Origin: Mobula hypostoma
Lineage: Eukaryota
Length of the DNA stretch: 64,000 nucleotides
Direction of reading: 5' to 3'
Assembly: GCF_963921235.1 (NCBI RefSeq)
Contig: NC_086097.1
Span: forward strand, 48,982,001-49,046,000
Shown: one piece after another, positions 3,323 through 23,380 of the stretch
Layout of the letters: each line of letters begins with the position of its first letter
Numbering within the stretch: position 1 is the first letter of the stretch
The notes under the pieces: generated by a model
Told to the model about the DNA's origin: nothing
Seen by the model: the letters and a program-made list of their open reading frames with translations, nothing else
The model's database searches: none
Made by a program: the position numbers and the translations under genes

Positions 3323-3851
3323 TAAGGATTGCCAACTGTCCCGTATTAGCCGGGACATCCCGTATATTGGGCTAAATTGGTTTGTCCCATAGGGGACCGC
3401 CCTTGTCCCGTAGTTCCCCCGCTAAGGTAGAGCGTTCCTATGAAACCATTCATAAGCCAAAATGATGTAAAGCGAAGAAGCAATTACCATTAATTTATAT
3501 GGGAAAAATTTTTGAGCATTCCCAGACCAAAAAAATAACCTACCAAATCATACCAAATAACACATAAAACTTAAAATAACAATAACATATAGTAAAAGCA
3601 GGAATGATATGATAAATACACAGCCTATATAAAGTAGAAATAATGTATGTGCAGTGTAGTTTCACTTAACAGAATCGGGAAAATTAAGCCAAAACCGATT
3701 TGTAGGAAAAAAATCAGCACGTACACGCATGCGCACACAGGTACCCACGCAAGGCTTCATGGTCATGGTGGTCTTTGTCGGGGTAAACACTGTCCCATAT
3801 TTGACTGCTACTTTTGTCCCTTATTTGGGAGTGAGAAAGTTGGCAGCCCTA
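3323..3851. mobile_element. Non-autonomous hAT-like MITE (tagggttgccaact-type TIRs) carrying a Tigger terminal fragment
   Basis: Ends taaggattgccaact / agttggcagcccta are imperfect inverted repeats, with repeated subterminal tgtccc motifs. Flanks ccggcatt / ctggcgtc resemble a decayed 8-bp target-site duplication (TSD). Confidence 0.7.
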
Positions 3852-6564: not shown

Positions 6565-6788
6565 TAAATGCAGAAGCTGGAAATCTTGAGCAACGCAAAA
6601 TGCTGGAGGAACTCAGCAAATCAGGCAGAATTAACAGTCAACCTTTCAGGCTGAGACCCTTCATCGCGACTGGAGAGGAAGGGGTCAGAAATCAAAATAA
6701 GAAAATGGTCTATTATCGTCTCCTATCAGATCCCTTCTTCAGCCCTTTACCTCGGCCACCTATCCCTTCCCAATTTATTATTTCATCC
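6565..6788. mobile_element. Penelope-like terminal repeat remnant (inverted arrangement)
   Basis: gctggaaatcttgagcaac..aaaatgctggaggaactcagc...gagacccttcatc..gactgg, followed by the opposite-orientation pyrimidine tract. Confidence 0.65.
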
Positions 6789-6823
6789 TGTCGTGTATGT
6801 GGCCTGGTTACACAACAATGGTA

Positions 6824-8424
6824 CAGGTGCCCCCCGCTTTTCGAACGTTCGCTTTACGAAACCTCTCTGTTATGAAAGACCTACATTAGTTACCTGTTTT
6901 TACTAACAGAAGGTGTTTTCACTGTTACGAGAAAAAGCAGTGCGCGCCCCGAGCAGACGCTCTCCCCCGGATTCGGAACTGCATTCTAGCCGGCATTGCT
7001 TAAACATGTGCCTGTGAGCAGCCATTTGCAAGATGAGTTCTAAGGTATCGGAAAAGCCTAAAAGAGCTCGTAGGGGTGTTACACTTAGCGTAAAACTAGA
7101 CATAATTCAGCATTTCGATCGTGGTGAACGAAGTAAGGACAACGTGAGTTTGGCTTGTGGAAGTTGACGAAGATGATGTTGAAGAGGTTTTGGCATCCCA
7201 TGACCAAGAACTGATAGATGAAGAGCTGATGCAATTGGAAGAGGAAAGGATAACAATCAAAACTGAAAGCAGTAGCGAATGGACCAAAAGTGAAGTCGTC
7301 CAGGAACTGAACGTGAAGCAACTGCATGAGATTTTCGCTGCAATGATAAAGTATGACTTTAATTTTGAAAGGGTATGTCGGTTTAGGGCATATTTGCAGG
7401 ATGGTTTGAGTGCTTACAAAGAACTGTATGATAGAAAAATGCGCGAGGCTAAGCAGTCAAGCAAGCCTTCCACATCAACCACAGCTGACGACAAACCTCG
7501 ACCTTCGACATCGAGGCAGGCAGACATAGAAGAAGATGACCTGCCTGCCATGATGGAAACAGACGACGAGATGACACCCCAGTGTCCCACCACCCGAACC
7601 CCCGGGCCGCAGACGGATACCAATTCGTGGAGAATGTAGTGGTACACGGGACGCATCCAGCACATCTTTAAGAAAAAGCTGAAATAAACAAGCTAATTAA
7701 TTAGGTGCCGCCTGGCACGTAAATGTCGGCCCAGATCAGAGGCGATTGCCGATTGCGTCGCCTCTGATCTGAGCTGATATTTACATGCCGGGCGGCACCT
7801 GAATAATTAGCTTGTTTATTTCAGCTTTTCCTTAAAGATGTGCTGGGTGCGTCCCGGCTGCTGCTGGACACCTGCATGCTTCGCGGATCGGTATCGGTTC
7901 GCTGCCCAGAGGGTGGGGGCCACTGCACCACCCTAACCTCCGACGATTCAGCTTAACATCCCATCATCAGTGTGCTCGGCGCTGTCCCAATTCCAGTAAG
8001 TGATACTACACTGTACATACATTATTACTACTTTATATCGGCTGTGTATTTTTACGTGTTATTTGGTATGATTTGGCAGCTTCATAGCTTAAAGGTTACT
8101 GAAGAGCACTTGCGCCGTGTTTGTGCCAAGAGTGCTTGCGTGAGATTTTCACTACGGAGAACAATGCGGCAATGATTGTGGAATAGTATTTTTACTTTAT
8201 ATAGGCTGTGTATACATCATATCATTCCTGCTTTTACAGTATGTTACTGTTATTTTAGGTTTTATGTGTTATTTGGCATGATTTTGTAGGTTATTTTTGG
8301 GTCTGCGAACGCTCACAAATTTTTCCCATATAAATAAATGGTAATTGCTTCTTTGCTTTACGACATTCCGGCTTACGAACCGTTTCATAGGAACGCTCTA
8401 CCTTCGGGTGGCGGGGGAAACCGG
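6824..8424 (+). mobile_element. Tigger/pogo DNA transposon, internally deleted
   Basis: TA on both sides (6822-6823, 8425-8426); TIRs caggtgccccccgc / gcgggggaaaccgg. N-terminal remnant from ATG 7033 (MSSKVSEKPKRARRGVTLSVKLDIIQHFDRGE, CENP-B/psq-like HTH). Acidic C-terminal ORF 7157-7639 (EVDEDDVEEVLASHDQELIDEELMQLEEE). DDE core missing. Confidence 0.9.
7647..7856. repeat. Long imperfect palindrome (~99-bp arms) inside Tigger
   Basis: cgggacgcatccagcacatctttaag...gatcagaggcga (7647-7745) pairs with tcgcctctgatc...cttaaagatgtgctgggtgcgtcccg (7758-7856). Confidence 0.9.
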
Positions 8425-8861
8425 TATTAATAAAAACACTGGAGACGGGAGCTAAGGTTCATGGTTCTTTACTGGCAGAAACCGAACTCGCACACACATA
8501 CAGATCAATACGCGCCTAATAGCGCATTCACCGACGTGTTACTAAAACATAAAGTAGTCCCTTATTATACTGTAGGCTATACAGTACACTCCACCCCTTT
8601 TATTTTAATAATGTATCAACTGTTTTTTTTACTGGGGCACTATGCTAAACAAATATGTTTGCCCTTAACATAAAAACGCCTACCATTTGTTTAATTAGTA
8701 ACGTAATAATATCAAATTATGGAAAGCTTTTTTTTAACTTTTGGTCTAAGTTAAAGTTAAAGTCTGTCCCGAGCCTTGTGGCCCATCAGACCCATTTATA
8801 ACTCAAGTCTCGGGGGGGGGCGGGGTCTTCTCTGCCTCTCCGGGTAACACCTGTCAATAAA

Positions 8862-9318
8862 TTTAGATTAGATTAGATTATGAGGACACGCAGTCCTATT
8901 TTATTGTTATTTAGTAATGCATGCATTAAGAAATGATACAATGTTTTTCCAGAATGATATCACAGAAACACATGACAAACTGACTGAAAAACTGACTAAA
9001 ACCACATAATTATAACGTATAATTACAACAGTGCAAAGCAATACCGTAATTTGATAAAAACAGACCAAAGTCTGCACGGTAAAAGTCTCAAAGTCTCTTG
9101 AAAGTCCCATCATCTCACGCAGACAATGAACCTCCAGCGCCGCAAACTTGCCGATGCAGCATCCTGGAAGCATCCGACCACAGTCCGACTCCAAGTCCGT
9201 CCGAAAACTCTGAGCCTCCGACTAGCTCTCCAACACCGAGCACCGAGCGCCATCTCTGCCGAGCACTTCGACCCCGGACCCGGCAACAGGCAATAGGCAA
9301 AGCCGAGGATTTCGGACC
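8862..9318 (-). mobile_element. Non-autonomous retroelement (SINE/LINE-tail) with (tctaa)n tail
   Basis: A ttagattagattagatta tail, then an AT-rich 3' region and a GC-rich body. It sits between the SUDS3 3' UTR and the Gypsy pol end. Confidence 0.55.
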
Positions 9319-9417
9319 TTGTTTGTTTTAATACAGATTTCCATATAAAAGTCATGAAAAGGTGACCTCTGAGCATCCGGAATTCAGAAGATATGCACCT
9401 CCAACTTGCTAATAGTT

Positions 9418-11301
9418 CTAGGCAGCAGATCGCCTCCGTATAATGAAGACTCCTCCATGCAGCTGTCCTAGATATATACGTATATTTGTGCTATCACTTG
9501 TCTTCCTTACCCATATCTCATTTGTTCCAACTGAGCTAATTACATGGCTAATCTTTGTTTTCTCCTTAGATTCCAAATAGATAGCCTGACCTTTATGATA
9601 TTATCTCTTATTGCATAATAACTTCCCATCTTCTATTCACGCTTCATATCTTTGTGCTGGTGATTCAGCAGGAGCGCTGGGAAGATGCTCAGGAGAAGAC
9701 GGAGATGCTGTCACTGTTTGTGGAAAACATCATTTTGGGAGTTAAAGAAATACATGATAAATTGGAGAGCAAGGTTGCATTCTACGCTGGTCAACTTGCA
9801 AAGAGTTTGAACAGCAACGCTAAAAGATCCTGAGGGCTCTTTCGGCCGTGATTCAGGTCCTCAGGGACTGTAAAGATAGTGCAGGATGTCTGTTCTTCAG
9901 GTACGATCTGAAAGAATATACAATTTACTTAGGAGAACTCAACGATCCCATCCTGCTTCATTGTGATCATTTTTACGGTTTGAAATGTATAAAGTGGTGG
10001 CTTGAATCAGGATAACAACTCTGCCAACTGTGCTGTACTTCTCTAGATGATAATTATGTACTAGTGGTAACAGAAGAAATAAGTGAAAATGTAGCAAAAT
10101 TATTTCACAAGAGGTGTGATGCATTTTTTGTAGCTTTGGTTTCCATGGTCTGCTTCAAAGATGACTTGCCACAAACAAAGAAGTGGTTGGTGATCTGCTG
10201 TCTCTGCTAGTTATTCAAAAGTCGGGGCAATCCAATAACTCACAGAAAGATCAGTACTTTACCAGTAATCGTTCACCATTTGATGAAGCAGTTGATCAAA
10301 ATCCTGTTGTTCGTTCCATTGTTCTTAAACTGCTGTTAAAGTACCGTTTTGCTGATATTAAGGATGACCTGCAGTGCTATCTGTCTGGCTCAAGAGGGAG
10401 AATTCCTTCAGATGCACATTCAGCAGAAGTGTGAAAATACAACAATAGAAACCTTAGTTTGTTGCCAGAATTCGCCTCTGTTGTGTTGCTCTTTCCCAAC
10501 TTCTTTCTGAAAAATAAGACACATTGCTGAGGATTCAAAATATGTACGTGCAAAAGAAACTTCTCTGCAAAGGATGAAGTGAATGATTCTTAATGGAGGA
10601 AGTGATTGGTTTGAGATTTACCGTGTGGGAAAGCTGTTCTGTTTGACTGGAGATGCTGGACTTCTTGGAGATTTAAGCTTATTGAGAGTTCGCAGATCTT
10701 CCATTATCTGTTCATCTGTTAACAAGTAATTTAACTGCGCAGGTGCAGATTTTCGTCTTTTGTCTGTAATTGGAACAGGGTCATTAGGTCTCTTCCTTAG
10801 TTTCCTTGTCATTATTGGCTTTACCTCCATAGAATCTCCTGTGAGTTCCATTGTTAGCCTCTCATTCTCAATCATCTTTTTCTTTTCTTCCAACTCAATC
10901 TTTTTATCTTCAAATTCCTTCACTGCTGCTTTCTTCTCTTTAATATAATTCCTTTCTCCTTGTTCTGTCTCCAATTGTTGAAAAAGCTCTGCATTTCATA
11001 TTCTTTCCTTGTATTGTTGATCTAGGTTCTTAATCCTTTTCTGATACTCCTGCAAAGTGCCTTCCTGTTACTACTGTAGCTGTCTTTTGCGAAATATCAA
11101 TTTCACCTGGTACATCTGCTCTTTTACTTCCAGGTAGTCTTCATCATCCTGCTTATTGGCAATATCTGTTTCCCTTGCATCCTCTGTATCTTCATCTGAG
11201 TCGCGGCCACGGATACTGCGTTCATCCTCATCGTCGACGCTGTCTAGCTCCTCCTCGTCCTTGTAATAGTCGACAATGGGTGAGTGGAGAGCTGTGGACA
11301 T
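9418..11301 (-). pseudogene. SUDS3: Processed SUDS3 (Sin3-HDAC corepressor subunit SDS3) retrocopy, interrupted at 9711-10648
   Basis: Intronless translation from ATG 11301: [113 protein letters not shown] | [40 protein letters not shown] (stop 9420-9418). At least five premature stops and an apparent 8-codon deletion. Confidence 0.95.
9711..10648 (+). pseudogene. RNF213: Processed RNF213 (mysterin) fragment covering the RING finger and flanking E3 region
   Basis: Frameshifted plus-strand translation gives LSLFVENIILG, ALSAVIQVLRDCKDSA, YTIYLGELNDPILLHCDHFYGLKCIKWW..LCQLC (decayed RING, 9917-10033), RCDAFFVALVSMVCFKD, LLSLLVIQK..SPFDEAVDQNPVVRSIVLKLLLKYRF.DIKD, VARIRLC and [11 protein letters not shown]. 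These are colinear with my recall of vertebrate RNF213 (LFVEHVLLG..CSICLGDAKDPVCLPCDH..SPFNDVVDKTPVIRSVILKLLLKY..VARIRLC..DWHRVYLVRKL). No introns. Confidence 0.9.
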
Positions 11302-11336
11302 CTTCCCCGTTGAGCTGCCCTCCTTCGTTGACACAT

Positions 11337-11740
11337 CTAGTGCCTTGATGGTATGCCAATCCAACTGGATTTTCCTGAGCCATTCACATTCCAGCAATGG
11401 TGGTCTCCATTTTTCAGTACATAGAGGTTCAGCTGCTGTGTTTTGTCTCTGTAGGTCACTGTCACTTTAATTTTACCTTTGGGATGCACTTTCTGTCCTG
11501 TGTAAATCTTTAGTAGTAGTTTAGTTCGTTTCAGAGGCATGTGAGAAAACAGTTGTTTGTAGTCGTGTTCGGAGATCACTGTTAAAGCTGAGCCTGTGTC
11601 CAACTCCATTTTCAGTCTCACGCCCGCCACTTGTGGAGTGATCCATATTACTCTTCGATCATCTGTCTCTTTCATGCTGTGAAGTTGCCGACAAGACAAG
11701 ACAGCTCATTTTTGTCGGAGTCGTTTTCACCATATTCGTT
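11337..11740 (-). pseudogene. Gypsy retropepsin (aspartic protease) region
   Basis: [49 protein letters not shown], then a 1-nt frameshift near 11405 to [14 protein letters not shown]. Confidence 0.9.
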
Positions 11741-11969
11741 TTGGAATATGCTACAAATAAAATGTCACTGAACAGAAATGAAGGAAAGAAATGTTACTGT
11801 TGTGGGAACAGGACACATGACCCGGATGACTGTTGGTTTAAAGACAAAAAATGCCGAAACTGTGGCAGACAGGGCCATATTGGCAAAGTATGCAAAGCTA
11901 GTAAACAGCAGAAAAAGGGCAAAATACAGAGAAACAAGAAACCCCAGAAAGGAAAATACAACAAGGTAC
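11741..11969 (+). pseudogene. Gypsy gag double zinc knuckle, inverted relative to the rest of the element
   Basis: CYCCGNRTHDPDDCWFKDKKCRNCGRQGHIGKVC (CCHC x2) on the plus strand, while the protease is on the minus strand. Confidence 0.85.
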
Positions 11970-12122
11970 AGCACTTTTTGTGTATTTCTCCCTTTTGCCT
12001 ATTTGGAGTACTGCTCCGGACTCATCTGCAGGACACCTACAAATTCTCCAGAGCACATGAATCCCTGACTTACAGTATGACCAGCCCATACATATGAACA
12101 AGCATTTGGGAGACCAGCAGAA

Positions 12123-12350
12123 TGGATTTGCCAGCTGTTTCTGTGGGTGGGAATTTGTAACTTGAGAAGTTTTCTAAAGGTGGACATGTGACCATGTATC
12201 AAATTCCCACCCACAGAAACAGCTGGCAAATCCAAGTCCTCCACAGGTTCCACCCCTGTGAATTGTCTGCAACTTGAGAAGTTTTCTAAAGGTGGACATG
12301 TGACCATGTATCAGACAATTCACAGGAGTGGAACCTGTGGAGGACTTGGA
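12123..12350. repeat. Two adjacent hairpins (35- and 39-bp stems) with a shared 42-nt loop
   Basis: 12123-12157 and 12200-12234 are a perfect inverted repeat. 12231-12269 and 12312-12350 have one mismatch. Loops 12158-12199 and 12270-12311 are identical except for the first base. Confidence 0.95.
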
Positions 12351-17462: not shown

Positions 17463-17685
17463 ACAACAGGAATTCTGCAGATGCTGGAAATTCAAGCAAC
17501 ACACATCAAAGTTGCTGGTGAACGCAGCAGGCCAAGCAGCATCTATAGGAAGAGGCGCAGTCGACGTTTCAGGCCGAGACCCTTCGTCAGTCCTGACGAA
17601 GGGTCTCGGCCTGAAACGTCGACTGCGCCTCTTCCTATAGATGCTGCTTGGCCTGCTGCGTTCACCAGCAACTTTGATGTGTGTT
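17463..17685. mobile_element. Penelope-like terminal repeat insertion forming a perfect palindrome, with 13-bp TSD
   Basis: Arms 17498-17590 and 17593-17685 are exact reverse complements. ccccaaaacttga is duplicated at 17450-17462 and 17686-17698. Confidence 0.92.
17588..17625 (+). ncRNA. Minimal type I hammerhead ribozyme motif (PLE-associated)
   Basis: cagtc CTGACGA a gggt-ctcg-gcct GAAA cg TC gactg: stem I cagtc/gactg, conserved core CUGANGA and GAAA, palindromic ACGU stem III, GUC cleavage triplet ending at 17620. Confidence 0.8.
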
Positions 17686-18837: not shown

Positions 18838-19753
18838 CTTTAAAATGGAGGCTCGTTCAGTCGCAGTGGCTTCTAAGGGGTCAACCAAAGGTGTTATTGT
18901 CTTTTTTTAACATATTTTATACAGTCGCAAGACTTTGCTGGACATTAAGAACTTAACGTACTGTAGGTCTACCTCAACAGTGAGCTACTCGTTGGCAGAG
19001 AAATTGAAAGAGTTGGGGTCTCGGCCCGAAACATCAACTGTACTCTTCCATAAATGCTGCCTGGCCTGCTGAGTTCCTCCAGAATTGTGTGTGTGTTGCT
19101 TGAATTTCCAGCATCTGCAGATCTCCTCTTGTTTCTGAAGGAGTTAGGCTTGCTGTGGATTGTGCTACTGCCTGCGTCAGAGAGGCATCAGAGGAGTCAG
19201 TGCGCGAAGGTGGAGTGCAATCTAACAGCGAGTGATCGTCTTAGTTGCATTCCTTGTGATCGCAAAACCCTGTTGGATATTGTTAATGTGGAATGCTGCA
19301 AGTCCGATTCACTGATTCGTTGGCAGGCAGCATGGACAGATGTCAGAGGAGCTGCATGAGCTCAGTAATAGCGAAGGCAAGAACTCAGGCCGCGGTGTCA
19401 CGTGTTTACGACCACCCAGGAGAGAGGCATCAAAATCGGTGCAGCCCACATGAGGTGATGCAGTGCAGCGTCCAAGCTGGAGTTGATGCTGCCCCCAGTG
19501 TTCACTCAGCAGAAGACCAGCTGTATTGTGGTCAACTGCAGGCTGCTGCAACATTCATGGACTCTAGGACTTGGACTATTATTTTTTTGTGTGTCTGTAT
19601 TTTACTGATACCTTTTATGTGCTGTATGTGCCTCGTGCTGTGTGTGACTGTTCGAAATCTGTTTTGTACCTTGTCCATGGAGTAATGCTGTTTATTTAGC
19701 TAGATTTATGGGTATTCATGTATAGTTGAATGACAATTAAACTTGAACTTAAA
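18838..19753 (+). mobile_element. Non-autonomous LINE-like/SINE-like element (copy 2) with a PLE insertion
   Basis: Homologous to 2565-4246. Ends ...gttgaatgacaattaaacttgaactt; possible agagaa TSD. Confidence 0.65.
19015..19135 (+). mobile_element. Short PLE 3' end
   Basis: gggtctcggcccgaaacatcaactg...gctgcctggcctgctgagttcctccag...ttccagcatctgcag, flanked by tgaaagagtt / tgaaggagtt (near-TSD). Confidence 0.8.
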
Positions 19754-22754: not shown

Positions 22755-23380
22755 TTAAAAATGCAAACATGAGGAAATCTGCAGATGCTGTAATTTCAAG
22801 CAACACACATAAAAGATGCTGGTGAACGCAGCAGGCCAGGCAGCATCTCTAGGAAGAGGTGCAGTTGACGTTTTTGGCCGAGACCCTTCGTCAGGACTAA
22901 CTGAAAGAAGAGCTAGTAAGAGATTTGAAAGTGGGAGGGAGAGGGGGAAGATCCGAAATGATAGGAAAAGACAGGAGGGGGAGGGATGGAGCCAAGAGCT
23001 GGACAGTTGATTGGCAAAAGGGATATGAGAGGATCATGGGACAGGAGGCCTAGGGAGAAAGAAAAGGGAGAGGGGAGGGAAACCCAGAGGATGGGCAAGG
23101 GGTATAGTGAGAGGGACAGAGGGAGAAAAAGGAGAGAGAGAGAAAGAATGTGTGTATATAAATAAATAACGGATGGGGTACGAGGGGGAGGTGGGGCATT
23201 AGCGGAAGTTAGAGAAGTCGATGTTCATGCCATCAGGTTGGAGGCTACCCAGACGGAATATAAGGTGTTGTTCCTCCAACCTGAGTGTGGCTTCATCTTT
23301 ACAGTAGAGGAGGCCGTGGATAGACATATCAGAATGGGAATAGGATGTGGAATTAAAATGTGTGGCCACTGAGAGATCCA
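22755..23380 (-). mobile_element. Penelope-like element 3' part (GIY-YIG endonuclease C-terminus + terminal repeat)
   Basis: ORF 23199-23381 VATHFNSTSYSHSDMSIHGLLYC..LRLEEQHLIFRLGSLQPDGMNIDF. Terminal repeat with a mutated hammerhead at ~22862-22899. Confidence 0.9.

Follow-up and report, generated by a model that had tools for sequence, protein, structure and literature searches.

In a ray genome, positions 6789-11970 of the window (the whole stretch of DNA analysed, 64,000 nucleotides) very probably represent a dead, rearranged member of a family of non-autonomous LTR retrotransposons of the Ty3/Gypsy type that carries a captured host gene, SUDS3; the sense of this copy is on the minus strand. 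In the SUDS3-bearing element about 2.7 kb of pol, comprising reverse transcriptase (RT), RNase H and integrase, is replaced by spliced host SUDS3 mRNA, which starts 19 nt before the ATG, ends at nt 113 of the 3'UTR and is in frame with gag-protease. The features listed in a first-pass annotation of this DNA (protease, SUDS3, 3'UTR, a SINE-like insert, the end of pol, a polypurine tract and an LTR) all occur on the minus strand, in the order given there, within 6789-11969.

Read in the sense direction, the window copy begins with the nucleocapsid segment of gag (11742..11970), which has two CCHC knuckles and lies on the plus strand, in the opposite orientation to that seen in all 12 other copies compared. 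The part upstream of it (the N-terminal part of gag, the PBS and the 5' LTR) has been lost, and only the 3' LTR is retained. The gag-pol linker and a complete retropepsin with a DTG motif follow on the minus strand (11321..11732; ORF from 11705 to 11321), as read from the ORF and by comparison of copies. This retropepsin is frameshifted in the window copy and reads into SUDS3 in frame in other copies. A three-way comparison places 12 nt of captured 5'UTR and the 7-nt microhomology of the 5' fusion, GGGCAGC (11320 to 11314), at 11302..11320 on the minus strand.

Comparison with the parental exons showed that the SUDS3 coding sequence lies on the minus strand in two parts. Nucleotides 1-677 (exons 1-9, spliced) occupy 10649..11301, with the ATG at 11301 and without 24 nt (eight codons, KENLIAEL); nucleotides 668-960 (codons 223-319 and the stop, exons 9-12, spliced) occupy 9418..9710, with the stop at 9420-9418. 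Between them is a 938-bp fragment of RNF213 (9711..10648, plus strand) from the RING region, recognised by a match to RNF213 in the PDB (E 3e-26) and antisense to the element. It is bordered by a 10-nt duplication of SUDS3 sequence and is a feature of a subfamily; a search for the parental RNF213 locus did not find it. The earlier description of a complete intronless SUDS3 coding sequence was correct in that all 12 exons are joined with no introns, but in the window copy the frame is broken after codon 226 by the RNF213 fragment, lacks the eight codons and contains five in-frame stops.

The first 100 nt of the captured 3'UTR, delimited by comparison with the parental mRNA, are at 9318..9417 on the minus strand. 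The end of the captured 3'UTR, including the 3' fusion point, is at 8849..8864 on the same strand, as judged by comparison with the parent, pol and other copies. The microhomology at this fusion, CAGAC, is present in all three and is mutated in the window copy. Comparison with other copies showed that the two parts are separated by a copy-specific SINE-like insertion with a (TAATC)n tail (8865..9317, minus strand), whose flanks meet without a gap in 6 of the 12 other copies compared; repeats that resemble it were found elsewhere. Downstream of the cargo, a three-way comparison with autonomous copies identified the last ~16 pol codons and the stop (8796..8848), and homology to the autonomous copies resumes in a 3' non-coding internal region common to the autonomous partner (8607..8795), both on the minus strand.

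A polypurine tract (8589..8606, minus strand) was read from the sequence immediately upstream of the LTR, its position being fixed by the LTR start. Comparison among copies gave the proximal 164 bp of the 3' LTR (8425..8588), starting TGTAC at 8588, and alignment to the LTR ends of other copies, with limits from comparison of 5' and 3' LTRs, gave the distal 35 bp (6789..6823), ending in ACA at 6789, which is the end of the element; both are on the minus strand. The 1.6-kb sequence that splits the LTR (6824..8424) is a DNA transposon with imperfect terminal inverted repeats of ~22 bp and a TA duplication. It is absent from other copies, whose LTR runs unbroken across the site, and is a later, copy-specific insertion rather than part of the SUDS3 family. 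The RNF213 insert, this transposon, and the lost 5' end with its inverted nucleocapsid piece are three features of the window copy absent from the first-pass annotation. Judging from its relatives, the window copy was itself probably inserted by integrase.

The parental SUDS3 gene is present in the same genome, with 12 exons, introns of 150 bp to more than 10 kb and a product of 319 aa, and was the single genomic match to the eight codons absent from the family. The cargo joins all 12 exons and is 93-96% identical to the parental spliced mRNA. Authentic SUDS3 mRNA contigs from three public runs part from the window sequence exactly at 11320. At the 5' fusion, the chance of a microhomology of at least 7 nt was 0.0006 in simulation, and at the 3' fusion of the short form the chance of at least 5 nt was 0.006. 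A second 3' junction type, the long form, carries 342 nt of 3'UTR and has a microhomology of 2-3 nt (chance probability 0.06-0.17). No poly(A) was found at the 3' end of the cargo, as the first-pass annotation had noted; the 3'UTR breaks off before its natural end, at nt 113 or 342, where pol sequence follows directly. No target site duplication (TSD) was found directly around the cargo, the flanks of which are two pol positions 2.7 kb apart.

The autonomous partner was located in the same genome. In all 12 RT-bearing loci that were fetched, gag-PR is 86-93% identical to that of the family and the match breaks off at one and the same base; in 9 of the 12 homology resumes at the same 3' point. 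A related polyprotein, P0002, has the order PR-RT-RH-IN, and the autonomous copies of this genome align collinearly to it. The ~2.7 kb of pol is absent exactly between the two fusion points, so that the cargo replaces element sequence rather than interrupting it. The family element retains the CCHC knuckles and the retropepsin DTG and has no RT, RNase H or integrase of its own, in agreement with the earlier reading: SUDS3 fills the entire interval from the end of PR to the last ~16 codons of pol, which makes the element non-autonomous. An RT probe of the autonomous form gave 1159 first-look candidates.

A mobile SUDS3 family, with identical junctions and different flanks, had been predicted from the window alone and was found on many contigs with different 5-bp target duplications. 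A 521-bp probe across the pol-SUDS3 junction had 40 scored genomic matches, at 91-93% identity, and every one covered the junction, a recurrence far beyond chance. With an 80-aa probe from authentic SDS3, 150 of 150 scored matches, among 463 first-look candidates, were intronless, and 149 of them were 207-216 nt long against the 240 nt expected, which indicates that the eight-codon deletion is common to these. A cargo DNA probe gave 418 first-look candidates. The family has at least 150 scored copies and ~420-460 candidates, the latter being first-look counts and not a census. All scored SUDS3 copies derive from one capture. Proteins with the same eight-codon deletion are annotated in other ray species.

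In other copies the LTRs are 200 bp long (TGTAC...ACAACA) and occur at both ends, with TG...CA termini. Five of the nine copies examined have clean, different 5-bp TSDs beside these termini, and in the other four the LTR ends are too degraded for a TSD to be read. A stretch starting with TGG after the 5' LTR marks the putative PBS position. The family tree is star-shaped, with none of 17 inner branches supported. Open frames of 397-497 aa still span the junction in three of 12 copies.

The capture is best explained by template switching during reverse transcription, as the first-pass annotation had proposed; the junctions common to all copies examined and the microhomology at both fusion points support this reading. 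In this model the RT of the autonomous element, synthesising minus-strand DNA inside a virus-like particle, would have copied the last ~50 nt of pol and then jumped, at the 5-nt match CAGAC, into nt 113 of the 3'UTR of a co-packaged, spliced SUDS3 mRNA. After copying the whole SUDS3 coding sequence, it would have come to the 7-nt match GGGCAGC, 19 nt before the ATG, and returned there to the element RNA immediately downstream of the protease. The predicted product is an element of ~3.3 kb (LTR-PBS-gag-NC-PR-SUDS3-pol tail-PPT-LTR) in which one reading frame encodes Gag-PR-SDS3 and RT, RNase H and integrase are lacking. This chimera would keep all cis signals, and the enzymes of autonomous relatives with about 90% identity in gag-PR probably copied it in trans, a single burst leaving several hundred insertions made by integrase. 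Additional switches within this lineage probably produced the second 3' junction, with 342 nt of 3'UTR, and the antisense RNF213 fragment.

Co-packaging and switching at the RNA level are what we infer from these sequences, and sequence alone cannot separate an RNA-level from a DNA-level switch. Both microhomology-mediated end joining (MMEJ) and replication-based template switching (FoSTeS) also typically leave microhomologies of 2-7 nt. By either process a SUDS3 cDNA or retrocopy could have been joined into the element, which was then transcribed and retrotransposed, and the antisense orientation of RNF213 would be easier to obtain at the DNA level, or else from an antisense transcript. Such an origin demands two precise breaks in one element and a free spliced cDNA, however, and we consider it unlikely. 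A precise internal swap of pol that keeps the frame and the cis signals is the product expected of copy-choice during reverse transcription, and at least three separate switch products in one lineage fit a recombination-prone RT. The swap also matches animal, plant and yeast cases documented by Tan et al. (2016, PMC5131818).

The SUDS3 cargo is best regarded as a passenger, and no evidence for selection or exploitation of it was found in the copies compared. In-frame stops occur in 15 of the 19 copies examined, and the singleton differences (92 synonymous, 272 non-synonymous) are as expected under neutral decay. The family-wide deletion of eight codons, a length that is no multiple of a heptad, falls inside the SDS3 coiled coil solved as 4ZQA. 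With these stops, this deletion and neutral singletons, the copies lack the intact ORF, preserved domains and purifying selection of a functional SDS3 paralogue.

It is similarly improbable that the cargo was selected because the Gag-PR-SDS3 fusion or the antisense RNF213 aids the element, for instance through titration of the Sin3-HDAC repressor or weaker activity of an antiviral E3 ligase. Such selection would fit the capture of SUDS3 whole and in frame with gag-PR, the frames still open across the junction, and the ratio of ~420-460 first-look candidates for the derivative to ~1160 for the autonomous RT probe. The pN/pS of copies against parental SUDS3 is 0.16-0.44 and the fixed differences are 10 synonymous to 1 non-synonymous; these substitutions are unpolarised, and such values would follow if the changes took place in the parental gene, which is under constraint. 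Three non-synonymous changes and the coiled-coil deletion had reached fixation, or come close to it, before the burst. Among the shared variants, recurrent CpG changes predominate (39 of 95), and a star tree offers no internal branches on which selection could be detected. Shorter non-autonomous derivatives of elements can spread without any cargo function.

RNF213 is an interferon-induced antimicrobial E3 ligase. In a stronger version the cargo would be a weapon: the lineage would have prospered because Gag-protease-SDS3 bound or misdirected Sin3-HDAC, and in a sub-lineage antisense RNF213 would have knocked down a restriction factor through double-stranded or small RNA. We consider this more doubtful still, and the earlier suggestion that the element exploits its Sin3-HDAC cargo is unsupported by a star-like burst of neutrally decaying copies with a family-wide coiled-coil deletion. 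If the weapon version were true, the element would be a vertebrate example of an anti-silencing and anti-defence module carried by a transposon.

Intronless gene copies in vertebrates stem by default from LINE-type retrocopying, and the truncated 5' end and inverted segment of the window copy superficially recall L1 twin priming. It is nevertheless very hard to credit that the family began with a processed SUDS3 pseudogene, made by a LINE, inserting into a Gypsy copy already in place, and that this copy later amplified. The inversion is private to the window copy, the 12 others being collinear; microhomology is present at both fusion points; and the idea is contradicted by the missing poly(A) and flanking duplication and by the replacement of pol. 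The first-pass annotation had expected a LINE-driven insertion to show a TSD and poly(A) around SUDS3 with contiguous pol on both sides, and none of these is present. Repeat-rich regions are prone to misassembly, but an assembly artefact, or copies that are merely segmental duplications, can be dismissed almost entirely: the junctions are the same on many contigs, where the flanks are unrelated and the TSDs differ, contigs from independent public runs carry family-type sequence, one of them bridging the junction, and the annotated ray proteins share the deletion.

In acutely transforming retroviruses host mRNA replaces pol by template switching and is expressed in a Gag-fusion frame, and the resulting viruses are replication-defective and helper-dependent. 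The SUDS3 family resembles these gag-onc viruses in all of these respects, but it has no env and no sign of infectivity or cellular effect, and it is a germline-amplified endogenous element rather than a somatic pathogen. Retroviral gene capture is reportedly treated by Swain and Coffin (1992) and by Goodrich and Duesberg (1990). Bs1 is likewise a non-autonomous LTR retrotransposon with several transduced pieces of host genes; it is a copia-like plant element with 1-5 copies and fragments of three genes, whereas in the SUDS3 family at least 150 copies were scored, the backbone is Ty3/Gypsy, and the cargo comprises a complete coding sequence plus an antisense fragment. LARDs and TRIMs (PMC13317346) also keep LTRs and PPT, together with a PBS, which in the SUDS3 family is putative, and need the enzymes of a partner. 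They have neither a host gene nor, as a rule, gag or protease, unlike the SUDS3 family with its gag-NC-PR and host coding sequence.

The capture mechanism has already been described for animal LTR-mediated retrocopies (Tan et al. 2016, Genome Res 26:1663, PMC5131818), and the SUDS3 family has the features of that class: an intronless cargo from an intron-containing parent, internal replacement, and microsimilarity at the fusion points. In the cases of that paper, too, intronless host mRNA replaces an internal part of the element ORFs, the 3'UTR is truncated with no poly(A), the microsimilarity has a median of 6 bp (7 and 5 in the SUDS3 family), and there are chimeras of more than one host gene and secondary retroposition as a pseudo-retrotransposon. 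In the HERV-K capture of human FAM8A1 (Jamain et al. 2001, as cited there) an LTR element of a vertebrate likewise took up a host gene, with microsimilarity at the fusion points, but that case is described there as a single untranscribed processed pseudogene and not an amplified family. The SUDS3 family differs from those retrocopies in that the whole coding sequence was captured in frame with gag-PR, that the chimera multiplied in a cartilaginous fish into a family with hundreds of copies, and that the parental gene, the autonomous partner and the alternative junction forms are all recoverable. As an instance of a gene-copying route that is already known, though rarely amplified, it is well documented: an element exchanged its own copying enzymes for SUDS3 and yet reached hundreds of copies.

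The window contains one copy of a non-autonomous Ty3/Gypsy-type LTR retrotransposon family with a captured SUDS3 mRNA, at 6789-11970 with its sense on the minus strand. From 11732 down to 6789 the family parts read in order as the last part of gag, a retropepsin carrying a DTG motif (open reading frames and Pfam aspartyl-protease matches), an SDS3 reading frame (ATG at 11301, stop at 9420-9418; open reading frames and Pfam Sds3), 100 nt of SUDS3 3'UTR directly after the stop and, after a (TAATC)n repeat, a short pol tail, a purine-rich tract and the LTR end. This order had been proposed in the first-pass annotation and is confirmed by the open frames, by Pfam and by comparison of the family. 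The proposal that the copy lacks reverse transcriptase (RT), RNase H, integrase and a poly(A) after SUDS3 also held when the window sequence was read: none of the three domains lies between the protease and the LTR end, and there is no A-run 3' of SUDS3.

The window copy was compared with twelve 10-kb stretches around genomic matches to a 521-bp probe that runs from the protease across the junction into the start of SUDS3. The block 10650-11732 is common to the window and all twelve loci. Private to the window copy is a (TAATC)n-tailed, SINE-like repeat at 8865-9317, inside the captured 3'UTR, whose flanks abut directly in six of the twelve other copies; repeats resembling it occur in loci L016, L017 and L021. 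Also private is a 1.6-kb DNA-transposon-like insertion (6824-8424) that splits the 3' LTR, with TA at both ends (a TA duplication) and imperfect inverted termini of about 22 bp. It holds a 163-aa plus-strand ORF (7148-7639), for which a Pfam search gave no match, and a 99-nt near-palindrome at 7647-7856, and portions of it recur inverted at 3417-3680. The CCHC nucleocapsid piece (11742-11970) lies on the plus strand here and is collinear with the protease in all twelve other copies. Twin priming was rejected as the cause of this inverted 5' piece, since U5 is complete at the end of the copy and the inversion is private to it. The N-terminal part of gag, the PBS and the 5' LTR had no match anywhere within the 64-kb window, and a search for LTR pairs within 1-24000 found none; the LTR was defined from other family copies.

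The window has other repeats. Beside the broken 5' end of the element, 12119-12350 consists of two tandem units of about 112 bp, each with inverted arms of 42-46 nt; it is probably a hairpin-forming MITE-like repeat, and its matches to microRNA families were all sub-threshold. A perfect 93-nt inverted repeat, with arms 100% complementary and 2 nt apart, occupies 17498-17685, with related copies elsewhere, at 22766-22901 in the window and within other loci. Rfam matches were limited to hairpins below threshold, lying on unrelated palindromes. A core of 40-90 nt (…GATGCTGCCTG.CCTGCTGAGTTCCTCCAGCATTT…) recurs in both orientations at 1144-1184, 1996-2087, 6593-6632, 17634-17674 and 19046-19138, and probably belongs to an abundant SINE as its conserved core.

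The suggestion that SUDS3 is carried by a mobile family with identical junctions was borne out. The 521-bp probe gave 975 first-look candidates, and all 40 scored genomic matches (the window itself being one) span the junction, at 91-93% identity. This and the following abundance figures are first-look candidate counts, not a census: 418 for a cargo DNA probe (40/40 scored matches at 92-94% identity), 463 for an 80-aa probe from authentic SDS3, and, for the autonomous form, 1159 with an RT probe. In other copies the LTRs are 200 bp long, start with TGTAC and finish with ACAACA. Clean 5-bp duplications surround the LTRs in five of the nine copies examined (ACTTG, ATAGT, GATGG, ATAGG and GATAG, all different), and the LTR ends are degraded in the remaining four. 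The element is 3.3-3.9 kb long, later insertions excluded. Open frames of 397, 427 and 497 aa that read from gag across nucleocapsid and protease to SDS3 persist in three of the twelve copies, and the ancestral product was therefore a single Gag-PR-SDS3 frame. Locus L019 has about 200 bp in gag (element positions 824-1025) to which none of the twelve autonomous loci aligns; either a duplication or an insertion private to this copy would account for them.

The database polyproteins closest to the family are 56-61% identical to it and about 1310 aa long, with the order PR-RT-RNaseH-IN. Their homology with the family stops 12 residues past the LDWHTIKAL motif of the protease region. A genome search with one such polyprotein led to RT-bearing loci, and in all twelve that were fetched the LTR, the 5' region and gag-PR match the family at 86-93% identity, the match breaking off at one and the same base. 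In nine of the twelve it resumes at a common point about 50 nt short of the pol stop. Given these common points of break and resumption, the family is the autonomous element with about 2.7 kb of pol replaced by about 1.05 kb of SUDS3.

Authentic ray SDS3 proteins have eight residues, KENLIAEL, that are missing from every family-derived "SDS3-like" protein. A degenerate pattern for this stretch had exactly one match in the genome and none in the control. From that match we read outward and, with a second pattern matching the end of exon 1, assembled the parental SUDS3 gene: 12 exons with normal introns, encoding 319 aa. The reading covered all but about 14 kb inside intron 1. The intron between exons 6 and 7 (L041/L043, contig G000:C78) starts with ATATCCTTT and ends with AC, which is a U12-type AT-AC signature. 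The cargo consists of all 12 exons joined, and 19 copies are 93.3-95.6% identical to the spliced parental mRNA. The 24-nt deletion of the family sits within exon 5, between two TGAGTTA repeats, and does not represent a splice variant; the eight codons fall inside the region whose structure was solved as the SDS3 coiled coil. The expected match length for the 80-aa authentic probe is 240 nt; 149 of the 150 scored matches measure 207-216 nt. The sole cargo match of 234 nt (G000:C58:4449776-4450009, 82% identity) could be older than the rest or carry a different deletion.

With donor and partner both recovered, the fusion points can be read directly. At the 5' junction the parental 5'UTR reads ...GGGGGC GGGCAGC TCGGCGGGGAAG ATG, the autonomous pol reads ...AAAGGA GGGCAGC AAGGCT..., and the family reads ...AAAGGA GGGCAGC TCGGCGGGGAAG ATG. 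This three-way comparison places the crossover within the shared 7-mer GGGCAGC, 12 nt before the ATG. Contigs from three of the four public runs compared, whose status as RNA is a guess, have the 24 nt deleted from the family, as representatives of authentic mRNA would; they depart from the window at 11320 and run on through 185-255 nt of parental 5'UTR. Since they continue upstream past 11320, the 5' switch was internal to the UTR and not at the end of the mRNA. In run X4, also of guessed RNA status, one contig spans the pol-SUDS3 junction, with 34 nt belonging to pol, and it was not counted as evidence of transcription.

The 3' junction has two forms. In the short form, which 13 of the 16 readable copies have (the window among them), CAGAC is common to nt 109-113 of the parental 3'UTR and to pol. 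The long form, found in three copies (L016, L018 and L038), keeps 342 nt of 3'UTR and joins pol 23 nt further downstream with a 2-3-nt match. A simulation of random junctions on the real sequences gave 0.0006 for microhomology of at least 7 nt and 0.006 for at least 5 nt. Because each form contains sequence absent from the other, simple deletion accounts for neither; both have the same 5' junction and the same loss of 24 nt. One form was probably derived from the other through a further switch with autonomous-element RNA or host mRNA. LTR-mediated capture, as first proposed from the window alone, is thus supported by the parental gene, the autonomous partner, and the microhomology at the 5' and short-form 3' junctions.

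Some copies carry a second host-derived segment. A 938-bp RNF213 fragment (9711-10648), on the opposite strand to the element, is a subfamily feature: among the twelve loci it is full in two, partial in one and absent in eight, with the remaining one unassigned. It codes for the RING region of RNF213 (matches to RNF213 chains in the PDB, E 3e-26, and RING Pfam matches) and has 10 nt of SUDS3 sequence duplicated on either side of it. First-look candidates numbered 156 with an RNF213 DNA probe and 407 with a RING peptide probe, the latter including pieces split by frameshifts. When parental RNF213 was sought in the genome with DNA and protein probes, the scored matches were family copies only. 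A PDB search with the ORF adjoining the fragment boundary gave no match.

A maximum likelihood tree of 19 cargo copies, rooted with the parental mRNA and with CpG sites masked, was star-shaped, with none of 17 inner branches supported, a median terminal branch of 0.028 and a stem of 0.011; it resolved no first form among the long-UTR, short-UTR and RNF213 forms. K2P distances between LTR pairs were 0.08-0.23 in six copies. Together, the star tree and the LTR divergence point to a single old burst. A dN/dS-type comparison of cargo with parent gave pN/pS of 0.16-0.44 (pooled 0.30). The 11 differences fixed in at least 85% of copies comprise 10 synonymous and 1 non-synonymous, against 92 synonymous and 272 non-synonymous or stop changes among singletons (Fisher p 1e-5). 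Made against the parent alone, these tests combine constraint on the parental gene with any on the cargo. Most simply, the fixed synonymous changes would have arisen in a constrained host gene while the copies decayed neutrally. Clearly cargo-side changes are S43R, P187T, S263G and the 8-codon deletion. Shared variants of intermediate frequency are mostly recurrent CpG transitions (39/95). The idea that the retroelement exploits its Sin3-HDAC cargo is not supported, and we saw no positive evidence of selection on the cargo.

"SDS3-like" proteins with the 8-residue deletion and S43R are annotated in two devil-ray species and a stingray, and the shared deletion implies that the family extends beyond one species. 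Those bearing the deletion (P0121, P0122, P0126-P0130 and P0238) look like gene models on retroelement copies, and two such proteins start with pol-derived or unrelated residues. Because they carry the diagnostic deletion, the many "SDS3-like" proteins of devil rays and the stingray most likely represent retroelement copies and not host paralogues, and ray gene-family counts need correcting for them.

The capture mechanism itself is already known, and the SUDS3 family is a clear, well-resolved further case. Tan et al. 2016 (PMC5131818) describe the same mechanism in animals, with internal ORFs replaced by retrocopies, microsimilarity at 25/29 junctions (median 6 bp), multi-gene chimeras and secondary retroposition; a 2026 review of plant gene capture (PMC13317346) deals with the same subject. 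Our literature search, partial in coverage and thus weak evidence, returned no paper linking SUDS3 with a retrotransposon. Here LTR-mediated gene capture is documented at single-nucleotide resolution, in one genome, where the donor gene is found together with the autonomous element, the product and no fewer than three further switch products. Bs1 of maize has 1-5 copies, as cited in Tan et al. 2016, and the animal retrocopies in the passages considered here are also few, whereas the SUDS3 family numbers in the hundreds; a gene-capture chimera is thus able to grow to that size in a vertebrate. Compared with the cases in those passages, the family has a whole CDS fused to gag-PR, in a cartilaginous fish, and the difference is one of degree and completeness, with every actor recoverable.
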